Source: Candidatus Micrarchaeota archaeon (GTDB taxonomy: Archaea > Micrarchaeota > Micrarchaeia > Anstonellales > Bilamarchaeaceae). From it: a DNA stretch of 64,000 nt. The stretch is taken from the NCBI GenBank assembly GCA_038046805.1, contig JBBSVO010000004.1:1-64000 (forward strand). The letters run 5' to 3'. Each line of letters opens with the position of its first letter. Positions within the stretch are counted from its first letter, which is position 1. Positions 9,701 to 15,700 of this stretch are shown here, piece by piece. The position numbers are program-made.

Positions 9701-12700
9701 ATATCCTTTAATGCACGTTATTCCCCTCGTAGTTATCCCTCAGCAGAAAAAGATCTGGAGTATATACTCAATAATATCTACTGTTTTAGGAGTAATAAAA
9801 ATTAGTAATTTGTTGGTGGTAAGCGTTGAAATTTTTTAGCATAGGATGCAATGAGACGCCAGATACGACACAAACAAGGTACGGTATTAGTTCAATCGAA
9901 CCTTTGAAAGAAGGAATACTCGGAGGTTCATTAAGACGCATAACCAAAACAGTGATTAAGGTAGTCGCTGCGACATTGTCATTTTTCTCCATCGGACCAG
10001 CACATTTTGCCTGCTCTTCTGGTTCGAAAAGTTATGCTGGTTCTGACCAAAGCTCGACGCAAAATAAATCCGTAACAAAAACAGGCAAAAATGATAAAAA
10101 CGGAAAGGCAGTTTTTGAGGCAAATGGAAAAACCTATGAAATAAACCTTTATGCTCGGGAGACCGGTGAGTCCGTTTCAGGTGTTGATATTATATTCTCA
10201 ATAAAGGGAGAAGGTGGGTTTTACGTTGTTTTGGATTCCAGTGGAGTTTATGTTCCAAGGCTTGCTGGCTTGGGACCAGTCATGGATGAAAAATCAGATT
10301 CTTCAGCCACAAAAAAGGTAAGCAATGTCGTCATGTTTAAACAAGGTGGCATCTGTCAGTTGCCAGCGAGTCTTTTTTCAACTGTTGACCTTTCAAGCGA
10401 AGAAGGGATGATGCAATTGGACAAATGGCATGAGGAATTGAAAAAAGATGAGGATGCAAAAAATCCGTTAACTGAAAATTTCAAAAAAGACGACGAAATT
10501 GTTACGTTGGCAGAGCTCAACGACAAAATATCGGAGTCTCTTCAGCATGTTGGAGGAGACGTTTCTGCAAGAGCCCTGCCAGCTATTGCGCTTTATTTTG
10601 GCTTCAAGAAAGTTGGAAAAGCAGTAGCAGGTTTACTCAACAAGGCAAATTTAGCACTTTTTGTTGCAGATCTGTGTGCTACTTCTGAAAAGCTTGACTG
10701 GGCAGGTGTTTATTATGGTTTGTGTTATTCTGATTTTGATAAATTTGAGATATGGAAATTTAAATATACTAATCTTGAAATAAAACCATTAATCCAAAAT
10801 CCGTTCTTCCTTGTACTTCCTGCTGAGAGCAAGCAGGGTTGGTCACCTCCTGTTGCGTGGATAAGTGGCAAAGTCGTATATGAATCACCTGAAGAGCAGT
10901 TTTTTGGCATGTTTTATTCTGAAGTGGAACTAAAGCATGTTGATGGCAAGCTTCCAACGATTAAGTCGGAAACCCCACTTTTTTATCCTGGGATACCTGA
11001 AACCACATTCTCGTTTGTGGCAAGCGCGTGCGGGAACATAAATCCGACCTACGATATAGGTATCCCTTCGTGGGGTTATTCTGATTCTCTTCATCCCAAG
11101 ACAACCCTGACGGTAAAAGATAAGGAAGAATATGCTGTAAATTTCTACATAAATGAAGACTGCGGGACAAGCCCGCTAAAACAGTATGTCGTGTCCTACG
11201 AGGACAAAGACAAGGATGGCTTTGGAAACAAATACAAGATCGCAGTTTCATGCGGTGAAGTTGAGGGGTATGTCGAGAATGGAGTCGATTGTGATGACAA
11301 GGATATCGGGATATTTCCTGAAAAATGTGGTCAAAATGGCGACAATTGTAATGGTGGTTTCATAGAAGGAGAATGTTCTAAAGTCAAATTACTTGCAAAA
11401 CGTTCGTCGTGGATGAGCTGTCCCGCGATTGATTTGGATGGGAATGTCTATCTTTGTGAATTTTTTTCCGATCTTCATTCTATGACTCCATTTCTTCAGA
11501 AGAAATGGGACTTGAAACTGGAAGGCGGTTGCGCAGGACAACCATCTGTTTCTAGTTCCGGGGCCATATACGTCTATGATATGGGAGATAATATATATTC
11601 AGTAAATCCAGATGGTTCTATTATCTGGAAACTTAATGTGGAAAACAAACTCCAAGCCTCCATACTGTACGGCCAGCTTGGTATCGCATCGGATGAAATG
11701 TTATATGCTTTGAGTTGCTCTTCATCTAGCACACCAGATATATTTTCTATAACTGGCACCGGAGCAATTAGTTGGAGTAAGTCCTTTGGTACTGTAACCT
11801 GTCTTTCCTCTTTGATATTGGATGCAACTCGAGTCTACGCAGAGTCGGTTTCAGAGCTGTTGGCATTAGACTATTCTGGCGAGGTAATCTGGAATTCTTA
11901 TACTCATAGTGGTTACAGTGGCATGTCTACGGGCATGTCCATATCAGATGATGGCACTTTATACGCATCCTCAACAACTGGATTGAGAGTGTTTGATCAG
12001 GATGGGAATATAAAATGGGAATTTGCCGATGGGATTCTGGAGGCCCCGCCTTCAATAGACAACGAAGGAAACCTCTATTTTGGTGTGAACATTGCATTTA
12101 CTGAATACCGTTTCTATTCATTAAACAAAGACGGTTCGTTACGTTGGACATTCAAAGCCGATTCTATGGGGCCGTACCAAACATCTGACAACCCACCAAT
12201 TCAGCCAACGCTCTCTGCGGATGGATCAATATACTTTCCTGTGAGAAAAGGGGTGTACTCATTGACCGAAAGCGGAGACCTGAATTGGTTTGTAACTACA
12301 GATGGTGAGATATACTGTCCAATCTCTGTCTCGCAGGACGGTTTAGTATATATAAAAAGTGGCGAATCTATGACGGGAAATGAGATTTATATATTCGAGG
12401 GTTCCTCTCCTTTGATAAATTCCCCGTGGCCTATGTCCCGCCATGACCCCCAGAATTCCGGGAATGCGGATTTTCCGATAGGTGGCAATAAAGATTCCAA
12501 GCAAAAATGAAATTGTATACGAGTGCTTTTTATGTGCTATTCAATTCCTGGTAAAGTCGTAGGCAAGAGCGGCAAATTGGTTACCATAGACTATTTTGGA
12601 GAGAAGAAAACCGCTTCTGACATCTCTGGCCTGTGCACTGCTGGCGATTATGTTTATGCTCAGGGCGGGGTAGTTGTTGATACAATTTCTGAAGAAGAAG

Positions 12701-15700
12701 CGAAACATGTTCTTATTGGATGGAAGGATAAATTTGTCAAGTTATACAGAAAAGATATTGCTCAATCTAAAACTCAAGCTGATTCTTCTGTGCTAGGTTC
12801 AATTCTCTCAAAATGTTCTAAAGGAGAATCACTTACTGGAACTGAGTTAACCCATATATTTGGCATAACCGACGATTCGGATTTACGCTCACTGTATTCA
12901 TTCGCTAACAAAATCCGTCATGACACGTTGAAAAATTCCTGTTGTGTCCATGGGATAATCGAATTTTCCAATAATTGTAAAATGAATTGCCATTATTGCG
13001 GCATTCGTTGCGGAAATGAAAAATTAATCCGTTATCGAATGAACAAAGCCGAGATTGTTGATTGCGCTGTCCGGGCCGTCCGCGAGCTTGGCTTCCGCGC
13101 GCTTGTTCTTCAGTCTGGGGAAGATTCGTATTACACTACGGAAATTCTTTGCGAAATCGTTTCCGAAATAAAAAAACACTGTGGGGTTCTTTTGTTTTTG
13201 AGCATCGGGGAACGGCCATTTGAGGATTATGTGCGGCTTTATGATGCTGGTGCTTACGGTTGCCTGATGCGGTTTGAAACATCCAACAAGAACATTTACG
13301 AGCAGATCCGTCCTGGAAGAAATCTGTCCGATCGGATTTCACTCATAAAATCCCTGATTGGCCATGGCTATGTTATGGCAACCGGTTTTCTTATCGGGCT
13401 TCCGGGAGAAACTATTCAGGACATAATAAACAATATTCTCCTCACCCGCTCGCTAAAGCCGGAGATGTATTCTTTTGGACCGTTTATTCCGCATCAAGAT
13501 ACTCCGCTCGCTTCCAGTCCGTGCATTTCCGCTGAGCTGGCACTGAAAACAATCGCAGTTTCCAGACTTCTTGATCCGCAGGCAAAGATTCTCGTGACCA
13601 GCGCGCTTGAAACTCTTGACAAAAATGCGAAGAGACGCGGACTTCTCGCAGGTGCGAATTCACTTATGATAAATGTTACCCCGCAAAATTATCGTTTGAA
13701 TTATTCCATTTATCCGAATCGTTCCGGAACTGATATTCAAACGCAAGACGCTATACGCGAAACGCTGAATCTTTTGGAGAAACTAGGGCGAGCACCTACA
13801 GATTTAAGCTTATCCTGAGACAAGAATGTTTTCCAGTGAACTTCGTTCATTGTCTCTCCAGAAGCTTTGCTTCTGAAGATCTTGTCTCAATCTATACTGA
13901 ACCAACGGCATAAAATTAAGAGTAAATCGGAAAAACTTATTTGGTTCAGTATAAGGAGCGAGAGACGAGCTGGTTAAGACGAGCTGGTTATAATGTCATT
14001 CATCAACGAAAAACAAATTTTTGATTCTCTGGAAAGAAATGCGAAATCCTCTGAATCAGAGCTGACCGCGATCTTATCCAAGGCGCTTTTGCTCAAAGGC
14101 CTCACGCTTGACGAGACTGCAGCGCTATTAAATTGCCGCGAGGTTGCATTCACAGAAAAATTATTCTCCACCGCGCGAACGGTAAAGGAAAAAATCTACG
14201 GAAACCGTCTTGTTTTCTTTGCACCGCTTTATCTTTCGAACGAATGCATAAACAATTGCCTTTACTGCGCGTTCCGCAAGGATAATACCCTGCTTGAACG
14301 AAAAACCCTGTCAATGGAAGAAATCCGCAGCGAGACTGCGGCACTTGAATCTCAGGGTCACAAGCGCCTTCTTCTTGTTGCAGGGGAACACCCAAAATCC
14401 GCGAACGTGGAATATGTCACAGAGGCAATTCGCACTGTTTACTCTACAAAAAATCCAAAAACCAATGGCGAAATCCGCCGCGTCAATATCAACGTAGCGC
14501 CGCTTTCTGTTGAGGATTTCCGCAAACTAAAAGAAGCTGGCATCGGAACTTACCAGTTATTCCAGGAAACTTATCATCATGAAACCTATAAGAAAATGCA
14601 TCCGAGCGGCCCAAAATCAGATTATGATTGGCGTATCTCAGTAATGGGTCGCGCGCAGGAAGCAGGCATTGATGATGTAGGGATCGGAGCATTGTTCGGC
14701 TTGTTCGATTACCGCTTTGAAGTCCTTGCACTTCTCCAACATTCGCAGCATCTTGAAGAAGTTTGGGGTGTTGGTCCACATACGATATCTGTCCCAAGAA
14801 TCGAACCTGCATTCAATATTCCGCTTGCAACTGCGCCTCCGGCACCTGTTTCGGATTTTGATTTTAAGAGAATTATTGCAATTCTTCGTCTTGCCGTTCC
14901 TTACACTGGGATAATCCTTTCAACGCGGGAGCGTGCGGATTTTCGGGATGAATCCTTTCAGCTTGGGGTTTCACAAATCAGCGCCGGTTCGCGCACAGAC
15001 CCGGGAGCATATTCGAAAAATTCAGCAAAGGAAAAGGCAGCTGCGGCTCAATTTAGCCTTGGAGACCATCGCTCGCTAGCCGAAGTCATTAGAGGAATCT
15101 CAAAAAACGGTTTTTTTCCAAGTTTTTGTACGGCATGTTATCGCCTTGGACGAACAGGAAAAGATTTCATGGTTCTTGCCAAGCCAGGTTTTATTCAGAA
15201 TTACTGCACCCCGAACTGCATCCTCACATTCAAGGAGTATCTTCTTGATTACTGCGGAAATACTGATGATCTCGCTAAAGGGGAAAAATTAATCGAATCC
15301 GAACTCGAAAAGATAACAAATAAGAATTTGAAAAAAGAGGTAATGGAAAAATTAAAAGAAATAGAAAAAGGGAAACGGGATTTGTATTTCTGATTGCTAT
15401 TAGATACAGGCTTTTAGCTCACATATATCTTCGTTCCCAGTTCTGTATTGCAAACAAGTTCTTTCCCGATCTTTGTACAGGGCCTGCTTTGCTTATTGAT
15501 AATCGCCCCGTATTCCTCCTCGCTTTTTGCATTTTCTGAATATGGTTGGTGTGTTTTAACAGTCCACTTTAACACGACAACATTATCTGGTGAAAGTGCG
15601 CCGAGATTTATAGGGCAATCCAGGATCATCTTTAGATTAGAGCCTTCCATTGTTGCAAGTTTCTTCCAGCACCCGGCATCGTTTTGATTTGCTACGCCGT

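Follow-up and report, generated by a model that had tools for sequence, protein, structure and literature searches.

A HypC-HydE fusion and HydG as a probable HypD/E/F-independent route to the iron centre of [NiFe] hydrogenases in Micrarchaeota

To our knowledge, HypC, HypD, HypE and HypF are held to be necessary for every [NiFe] hydrogenase, and HydE and HydG are held to be specific to the [FeFe] class. The [NiFe] site requires one CO and two CN ligands, and in the Hyp pathway both kinds derive from carbamoyl phosphate. The carrier in this pathway is HypC, whose Cys2 delivers the Fe(CN)2CO unit to the large subunit in its apo form, according to two papers (PMC11565642, PMC8692609). In [FeFe] maturation the known product of HydG carries two CO and one CN, and the same source treats the role of the His that binds the dangler iron of HydG (PMC8855341). 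In a computational study of HydE (PMC11826987), Met224 and Met291 are transient iron ligands and R54, T134, R155 and T269 surround the CN ligands of the dimer.

Here we describe a two-gene module from a Candidatus Micrarchaeota archaeon of the family Bilamarchaeaceae that joins elements of both systems. It lies in a window of 64,000 nucleotides, the whole stretch of DNA analysed (positions 1 to 64,000 of contig JBBSVO010000004.1, assembly GCA_038046805.1), and has the following features.

12532..13818, + strand: HypC-HydE fusion gene, 428 aa, one open frame (Pfam and NCBIfam profiles, AlphaFold model)
12532..12729, + strand: HypC domain, residues 1-66 (PF01455 over cut-off, aligned to E. coli HypC)
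12934..12951, + strand: family-specific N-x-C-C-x-H motif, residues 135-140 (alignment of 118 fusions)
12976..12999, + strand: radical-SAM CX3CX2C of the HydE-like domain, C149, C153 and C156 (invariant, 118/118)
13465..13668, + strand: stretch from Met312 to Met379, equivalent to HydE Met224 and Met291 (both invariant, 118/118)
13819..13992, no strand: 174-nt spacer between the fusion and hydG, with a small palindromic repeat at 13880-13953 (13-nt perfect inverted repeat)
13993..15393, + strand: hydG, 466 aa, predicted full two-cluster tyrosine lyase (TIGR03955, 557.6 bits against a cut-off of 312.15)
14779..14781, + strand: HydG His263, putative dangler-iron ligand equivalent to T. italicus His265 (alignment)
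15127..15207, + strand: HydG auxiliary-cluster motif CX2CX22C, C379, C382 and C405 (sequence)

The fusion protein comprises HupF_HypC (residues 1-61), Radical_SAM and BATS domains, with PF01455 scoring 32.5 bits (cut-off 28.5, E 9.5e-8), the HydE profile TIGR03956 scoring 268.2 bits (cut-off 254.6), and 36-38% identity to T. maritima HydE; by profile it is not HmdB, PylB or BioB (82.8, 139.3 and 104.9 bits against cut-offs of 320.9, 348.2 and 225). An assembly artefact is ruled out because all of its best 120 database matches carry both PF01455 and PF04055. HydE 3cix is the top structural match of the AlphaFold model (pLDDT 95.2, pTM 0.93; TM 0.94 by target), and the HypC domain matches HypC 2z1c (E 2e-5). 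Like the HypC of the HypC-HypD-HypE-HypF systems of E. coli and T. kodakarensis, this domain combines the HypC fold with an N-terminal Cys2, which is present in 117 of 118 fusion sequences, 105 of the 118 starting with MC. Unlike them, it is fused, its profile score for TIGR00074 (26.9 bits) is under the cut-off of 48, and Gln44 stands in 118/118 fusions where E. coli HypC has the His of its VLVHVG motif, presumably His51. The loss of this canonical His is a point that we count against the route proposed below.

Set beside the HydE of [FeFe] systems (T. maritima 3CIX, 7O1O), the fusion differs by its added HypC domain, by G226S, by the new CCxH motif (N135, C138 and H140 in 118/118, C137 in 112/118) and by the replacement, across the family, of three of the four pocket residues that contact CN. 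R54 has become His in 118/118, being occupied by His140 of the fusion, T134 has become Phe in 114/118 and R155 Gly or Ala in 117/118; only T/S269 is kept, whereas four HydE proteins from [FeFe] genomes retain R, S/T and R at sites 54, 134 and 155. The equivalents of Q107, R159, E161, M224, M291 and YxxY are invariant in 118/118, a pattern that continued use of the cysteinyl-iron complex as substrate would predict.

The HydG of the module resembles its T. italicus counterpart (4WCX) over its full length (540 bits), with both clusters present, the CX3CX2C motif at residues 85-92 and a dangler His that is kept in 68/68 HydG frames examined; the ThiH profile reaches 310.5 bits, under its cut-off of 380. 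These motifs suggest that it would make an iron synthon bearing CO and CN from tyrosine. The palindrome in the spacer has similar copies elsewhere in this genome, and of 13 loci listed for relatives, 12 have the fusion and hydG touching or overlapping each other; the spacer is probably a later insertion that lies outside the module.

Profile searches agree with the initial annotation that an intact fusion and a complete HydG occur here together with a [NiFe] hydrogenase, the large subunit of which (contig C9) has both Ni-binding motifs. Searches of the genome found no HypD and no [FeFe] enzyme, and no HydF, HypA, HypB, HypE or HypF over cut-off; the HypE- and HypF-like matches are short, partial and far under theirs. 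By these searches the genomes G051 (one contig), G080, G081 and G083 likewise lack HypA/B/D/E/F, HydF and an [FeFe] enzyme. The claim that a maturation protease was missing as well stands only in so far as nothing passes the TIGR00072 cut-off (E 2.6e-5): a divergent protease adjoins the hydrogenase (PF01750, E 0.004), a placement shared with Hyp systems, as does a nickel permease that resembles NicO (E 1.9e-5, below its cut-off). The maturase genes and the hydrogenase are on separate contigs, and module and hydrogenase are unlinked in G051 too; in G081 they are neighbours. In one aquifer RNA run a fifth of the words were found, and contig depth was 2-4, equal over the module and its flanks, which is uninformative about expression.

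Our survey of 99 Bilamarchaeaceae genomes ties the module to [NiFe] and not to [FeFe] enzymes. Large subunits, first counted in 52 of the 99, now number 53, that is, 57 PF00374 matches minus four without Ni cysteines; the earlier doubt over proteins of ~388 aa is removed, as these are large subunits of the group-4 type that keep both motifs, one of them cut by a contig end. The module accompanies group-3-type and group-4-type enzymes alike. Among the 53 genomes, 16 hold the fusion only, 34 DUF6390 (PF19927) only, 2 both and 1 neither, and the 46 without a large subunit include one with the fusion and none with DUF6390. Where DUF6390 is absent (63 genomes), a large subunit occurs in 16/17 with the fusion against 1/46 without it. 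The Fisher values for these associations (1.7e-10 and 7.7e-13) are overstated because related genomes are not independent. An [FeFe] enzyme is found in 0/19 fusion genomes against 34/99 overall, and three genomes with an ordinary HydE all have an [FeFe] enzyme and no [NiFe] enzyme, with hydF adjacent in two. In genus g17 the module lies directly upstream of the small subunit in 4/8 genomes, in the slot taken elsewhere by DUF6390 and an EamA permease, and the other four are without hydrogenase. Decay of the module follows loss of the [NiFe] enzyme: in G077, without one, the fusion has stops and HydG is shortened, and G065, which now has an [FeFe] and no [NiFe] enzyme, retains a 29-aa fusion relic. 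One genome (G029, 65% complete) has the fusion and no hydrogenase. Incompleteness of the bins was considered as the cause of the absent hyp genes and rejected: HypD was found in 0/99 genomes by profile search with positive controls, and it is absent from one-contig G051.

DUF6390 usually occurs with EamA beside the hydrogenase. One of its domains has the HypC fold (match to 2z1c with Z 5.8, rmsd 1.9, 71 aligned), and a structure search gave no clear fold match for its N-terminal domain; in G149 a fusion-type HypC domain with the Gln is joined to a DUF6390-like domain. The DUF6390-EamA module shares a HypC-fold domain and an operon slot with the fusion module, yet it lacks the radical-SAM enzyme, brings a permease and is almost never in one genome with the fusion. 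The 35 relatives without HydG or Hyp genes had been raised as an objection to a role in [NiFe] maturation; this objection falls because they hold DUF6390, another HypC-like protein, and the tie is stronger than first argued because a second alternative module accounts for the counter-evidence. No CN or CO maker is recognisable in the DUF6390-EamA genomes, so these archaea may share some other source of the ligands, and the part played by the modules may be smaller than we propose. In our literature search, in which most subscription papers were outside coverage, neither the module nor DUF6390 was found described.

The exclusion extends to the phylum. We surveyed 311 genomes with a completeness of at least 85%. 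A strong [NiFe] match occurs in 106 of them; 97 of these hold exactly one of HypD, the fusion module and a DUF6390-type module, 2 hold two and 7 none, five of the latter having neither HydG nor a divergent DUF6390 on search. HypD overlaps with neither of the others and is in 0/22 fusion genomes. This count leaves aside 16 weak single PF00374 matches, of which the two that were read, G004 and G096, have no Ni cysteines. The search with the short DUF6390-like model covered 80 selected genomes of the 311, and the [FeFe] search covered the 99 family genomes and 19 others. G312 (90% complete, outside the family) carries part of a fusion alongside an [FeFe] enzyme, and no [NiFe] match. On a quick tree of 57 rows the fusion label changes 7 times, at least 4 of them forced (G011 and G024 labelled as DUF, G049 as fusion by HydG alone, G327 as DUF by EamA alone). 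As for the initial suggestion of a shared origin of ligand synthesis, this patchy spread accords better with repeated swapping than with common descent. Among 80 metagenome fusion loci, 34 have [NiFe] structural or maturation genes, and none has HypD/E/F, HydF or HydA; a search within the locus found no HydG in 11 of the 35 loci of at least 10 kb. The 46 loci without a [NiFe] gene are counted against our reading, as are these 11 loci, the 7 phylum genomes with no module, G312 and G029, the separate contigs of module and hydrogenase here, and the absence of HypA/B from the five genomes searched.

The initial proposal that HydG and the HypC-HydE fusion serve the [NiFe] enzyme in place of HypCDEF gains support from the family and phylum co-occurrence. 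We consider it probable that they provide the iron half of the [NiFe] site by a route that needs no HypD, HypE or HypF, and that the two enzymes form a second, undescribed way to make its Fe-CN-CO centre. Since its motifs are intact, and by the established chemistry of HydG enzymes, this HydG would split tyrosine, in place of the carbamoyl phosphate of HypCDEF, to give [Fe(Cys)(CO)2(CN)] on the dangler iron, each cycle also yielding a second CN. The HydE-like barrel would then accept this complex as HydE does, the cysteine being stripped or replaced; its remodelled lower pocket would make no di-iron dimer and keep a mononuclear unit, which a CO-for-CN exchange would turn into Fe(CN)2CO, though no enzyme for such a swap is evident. 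Finally, by analogy with HypC, Cys2 of the fused HypC domain may pass the Fe(CN)2CO unit on to the large subunit while this is still in its apo form. A predicted complex of the HypC domain with this large subunit is consistent with the hand-over, at a weak score of 0.47 (best of 3 controls 0.00; contact agreement of at least 55% and a partner pLDDT of 72 or more). Of the pairs used for calibration, 116/157 solved and 2/215 mismatched ones reached the mark, but at 0.60 or below only 18/157 solved pairs and both mismatches did so, and because HypC and the large subunit are a textbook pair the prediction may pass through likeness. In this family nickel would be inserted with no help from HypA/B, and trimming of the large-subunit C-terminus would fall to the divergent protease. 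Four genomes (G111, G113, G161 and G162) have a remodelled HydE-like enzyme, HydG and a [NiFe] enzyme with no HypC found, and this bears against hand-over by a HypC domain.

The CO:CN ratio of the HydG synthon is wrong for a [NiFe] site, which counts against the proposed route. A module that served the [NiFe] enzyme but left the ligands of the HydG unit as they are, so that the site became a non-standard Ni-Fe(CO)2(CN), would accommodate this ratio from a canonical-looking HydG, the lack of an evident swap enzyme and the three CN-contacting residues lost from the pocket. We nevertheless find it quite unlikely: R351 (APRG) and P374/T375 of the large subunit, which we take to be the two cyanide-binding sites, are invariant in 45/45 sequences, and close kin of the same large subunit are paired with DUF6390 or HypD. 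HydG might instead give free CN and/or CO, production of which is, by its title, the subject of one paper, with the fusion an iron scaffold that replaces HypD and its radical chemistry directed at another target or dispensable. C137, C138 and H140 could bind metal, and the long loci with a fusion and no HydG nearby would fit, but the invariant HydE residues and SAM cluster and the retained HydG His263 make this reading unlikely.

Two further explanations would sever the tie to [NiFe] maturation. That these are ordinary or relic [FeFe] maturases, hydF and hydA being lost from incomplete bins and the HypC domain incidental, might be argued from the two profile scores over cut-off, from the fusion piece in G312 and from the report that most archaeal [FeFe] enzymes occur without maturases (PMC11216029). 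It is disfavoured, and we regard it as highly improbable, given the absence of [FeFe] enzymes from the family's fusion genomes, of HydF from all 5 genomes searched, including one-contig G051, and of both HydA and HydF from the 80 loci, together with the replaced dimer-pocket residues. A module that builds an Fe-CO/CN cofactor for another protein, the hydrogenase tie reflecting a shared hydrogen or metal lifestyle, would suit the unlinked genes and the loci without [NiFe] genes, and the related HmdB family does serve a different cofactor; yet no alternative partner recurs across lineages in the locus clusters, and this reading, which predicts neither the exclusion of HypD and DUF6390 nor the shared operon slot, is very unlikely.

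Taken with its probable role in making the [NiFe] iron centre, the module leads us to lean, with some reserve, towards three interchangeable routes to this iron unit, each ending in a HypC-type carrier: HypCDEF, the tyrosine-based radical-SAM module, and DUF6390-EamA, which may take up the unit, or precursors of it, from outside. Two genes could then replace four in a foreign host, and heterologous hydrogenase production could be shortened. Fusion proteins of this kind are listed as HydE in Table S3 of PMC11216029, and annotations that file them so would need correction; the fusion would also offer a natural HydE variant for probing the di-iron dimer site. If true, the hybrid route would overturn both the rule that Hyp proteins are required and the rule that HydE and HydG are [FeFe]-specific, and would account for hydrogenases in genomes without hyp genes.

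HypC and a HydE-like radical-SAM enzyme are joined in a single protein that is encoded ahead of HydG, in the following arrangement.

9826-12510, predicted secreted protein of 894 aa carrying a PQQ-type beta-propeller, ending 21 bases before the fusion gene
12532-13818 (+), HypC-HydE fusion, one frame, 428 aa, matching PF01455 and TIGR03956
13880-13953, small palindromic element in the spacer that separates the fusion and HydG genes, with a perfect inverted repeat of 13 nt
13993-15393 (+), HydG, 557.6 bits against a cut-off of 312.15

The HypC domain occupies residues 1-61 of the fusion (PF01455, 32.5 bits against a cut-off of 28.5) and is accompanied by a HydE-like radical-SAM barrel (TIGR03956, 268.2 bits against 254.6); HydG keeps its SAM motif, His263 and CX2CX22C. 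These scores, together with the presence of both fusion domains in all 120 of the 120 best database matches, bear out the initial annotation of the two genes. The fusion is conserved, real and widespread, and the sources named for its best matches include Micrarchaeota, Aenigmatarchaeota, Altiarchaeota, Nanoarchaeota, Omnitrophica, Patescibacteria and Gammaproteobacteria. Structure prediction gave a single confident model (pLDDT 95.2, pTM 0.93) with HydE structures as its top matches. Since six similar copies of the palindromic element lie on contigs C1, C3, C6 and C7 (E 0.005 or better, 63-77 nt), it probably belongs to the small mobile or REP-like repeats. The spacer between the fusion and HydG has a folding z of -4.6. 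The beta-propeller protein did not recur as a neighbour among the fusion locus clusters.

The genome under study, G000 (86% complete), encodes on contig C9 a single [NiFe] large subunit, in which RICGTC and DPCMSC are present, and a minimal small subunit of 175 aa (L001:13299-13826) in which C-[CS]-E-D-[SN] replaces the usual N-terminal motif and for which two queries found no flavoprotein partner in G000. The initial annotation saw no Hyp machinery here, which stands for HypA, HypB, HypD, HypE and HypF, none of them over its cut-off, but it overlooked two genes on the strand opposite to the hydrogenase, one for a maturation protease of divergent sequence and one for a nickel permease resembling NicO, both below family cut-offs, whose presence suggests that the enzyme stays in use. 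Searches of G000 and of its relatives G051 (one contig), G080, G081 and G083, with positive controls detected in every case, returned no HypD, [FeFe] hydrogenase, HydF, HypA, HypE, HypF or HypB above cut-off.

Among the 99 genomes of the family Bilamarchaeaceae, [FeFe] hydrogenase occurs in 34 and in none of the 19 that carry the fusion (17 complete and 2 truncated at contig ends). Ordinary HydE is present in three, all with [FeFe] and none with [NiFe] hydrogenase; hydF adjoins it in two, and the contig ends there in the third. Within genus g17, four of eight genomes have the fusion upstream of the small subunit and in divergent orientation to it, immediately next to it in two and at a distance of a few genes in two; the remaining four have no large subunit. 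Stops interrupt the fusion of G077, where HydG is shortened and [NiFe] hydrogenase is absent; G065, also without [NiFe], retains 29 residues of it as a relic, flanked, judging from gene lists, by the genes that surround the fusion in G051. Outside the family, G312 has a fusion piece alongside [FeFe] only. The module very probably serves the [NiFe] hydrogenase. The two hydrogenase types are themselves nearly exclusive in the family (one genome with both, of 53 and 34), and an intact HydE match is missing from 31 of the 34 genomes with [FeFe]. In three g17 genomes (L043:4972-6995, L045, L046) the hydrogenase locus is flanked by genes that, by sequence likeness, resemble an iron-sulfur assembly (Suf) cluster.

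An earlier objection, that 35 relatives have [NiFe] hydrogenase with neither HydG nor Hyp genes, is answered by a different protein. Searching the 99 genomes with the HypC profile gave weak matches 2-3 kb from the hydrogenase where the fusion is absent. What the profile matches there is the C-terminal domain of DUF6390 (PF19927), a protein that comes with an EamA permease; the pair is read in the direction leading away from the small subunit. The predicted model of DUF6390 has two HypC structures as top matches (Z 5.8, middling, with Pfam in agreement), and an invariant Cys lies near the position of HypC Cys2. C24, H128, C152 and H207 are invariant in DUF6390. The large-subunit profile PF00374 matches in 57 family genomes, against the 52 first counted, and in 53 once four without Ni cysteines and without either module are dropped; 40 of the 53 were read for motifs. 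Sixteen of the 53 have the fusion only, 34 DUF6390 only, two both and one neither, the last being G049 (73% complete), which has HydG. All 36 family genomes with DUF6390 have a large subunit, and the 46 genomes lacking one hold a single fusion (G029, 65% complete) and no DUF6390. Group-3-type and group-4-type large subunits accompany each module. DUF6390 and EamA stand beside [NiFe] hydrogenase in HypD-less genomes at L034:7041-8668 and 22 further loci. No CN/CO maker was seen in DUF6390 genomes, and DUF6390-EamA is possibly an import route.

The fusion family keeps both iron-binding methionines of HydE (M224 and M291), R159, Q107, E161 and YxxY in 118 of 118 proteins and has His at R54, Phe at T134, Gly/Ala at R155 and a new Cys-Cys-x-His; four HydE of [FeFe] genomes in the phylum retain the canonical residues at these three positions. 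From this pattern we infer that the fusion would still accept HydG's cysteinyl-iron complex and release a mononuclear product. According to PMC8855341, HydG yields [Fe(CN)(CO)2(Cys)] together with one further CN. That is enough ligand to form Fe(CN)2CO, although one CO would have to be swapped for CN. Cys2, which in HypC-family proteins carries Fe(CN)2CO to the apo large subunit (PMC11565642, PMC8692609), is kept in 117 of 118 fusion proteins. The predicted complex of fusion residues 2-80 and the G000 large subunit gives weak support, with a score of 0.47 where the best of three controls reached 0.00; contacts agreed at 55% or more, with partner pLDDT of at least 72. Passes this low came from 18 of 157 solved pairs and from both passing mismatches (2 of 215), and HypC with a large subunit is a textbook pair, so that resemblance alone may let it pass. 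We favour, with reasonable confidence, a route in which HydG makes the iron unit from tyrosine, the fusion remodels it and Cys2 delivers it. The module would work like HydG/HydE feeding a HypC, and it is neither the [FeFe] maturation system nor the Hyp pathway. The literature searched, with bioRxiv supplements and most subscription papers outside its scope, contained no description of it. Four Micrarchaeota proteins with the fusion's N-terminus stand among the true HydE hits of PMC11216029, three from genomes marked there as not encoding [FeFe], and 'hypc' is not present in that paper's main text.

Among 80 metagenome fusion loci, not de-replicated, HydG occurs in 51 and a large subunit in 25, and 34 hold a [NiFe] structural or maturation gene (protease in 27, HypA in 17, HypB in 4); HypD, HypE, HypF, HydF, HydA and DUF6390 occur in none of the 80. 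Many share the order small subunit, large subunit, protease, hypA, fusion. HydG is absent within 11 of the 35 loci of at least 10 kb, which counts against the proposed route.

Across 311 phylum genomes at least 85% complete, the fusion is found in 22, an unfused form with the remodelled pocket in 4, HypD in 7 and DUF6390 in 47. PF00374 matches in 122, or 106 strong [NiFe] genomes after 16 weak single matches are dropped. Twenty-nine of these initially appeared module-less, and 22 of the 29 encode a short protein resembling DUF6390, in many cases together with EamA and a HypC that lacks the His. Barring HypC-domain matches, this short protein is missing from all 25 fusion genomes searched, and likewise from the 4 unfused, 7 HypD and 14 [FeFe]-only ones. 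Exactly one module is thus present in 97 of the 106, two in 2 and none in 7. The intact module-less hydrogenases at L196, L200-L203 and L213 may reflect either a fourth route or assembly gaps. At L190, L191, L193 and L194 the unfused HydE-like protein adjoins HydG in four [NiFe] genomes, in which no HypC was detected. One protein of G149 (L197:13898-14596) joins a fusion-type HypC(Gln) domain to a short DUF6390-like domain and so links both alternative modules. Fisher values are inflated by kinship among genomes. A quick tree built from 57 group-3-type large subunits requires seven changes of the fusion label, at least four of these forced by strong branches, and the distribution of the fusion in these archaea is therefore not the outcome of a single inherited event.
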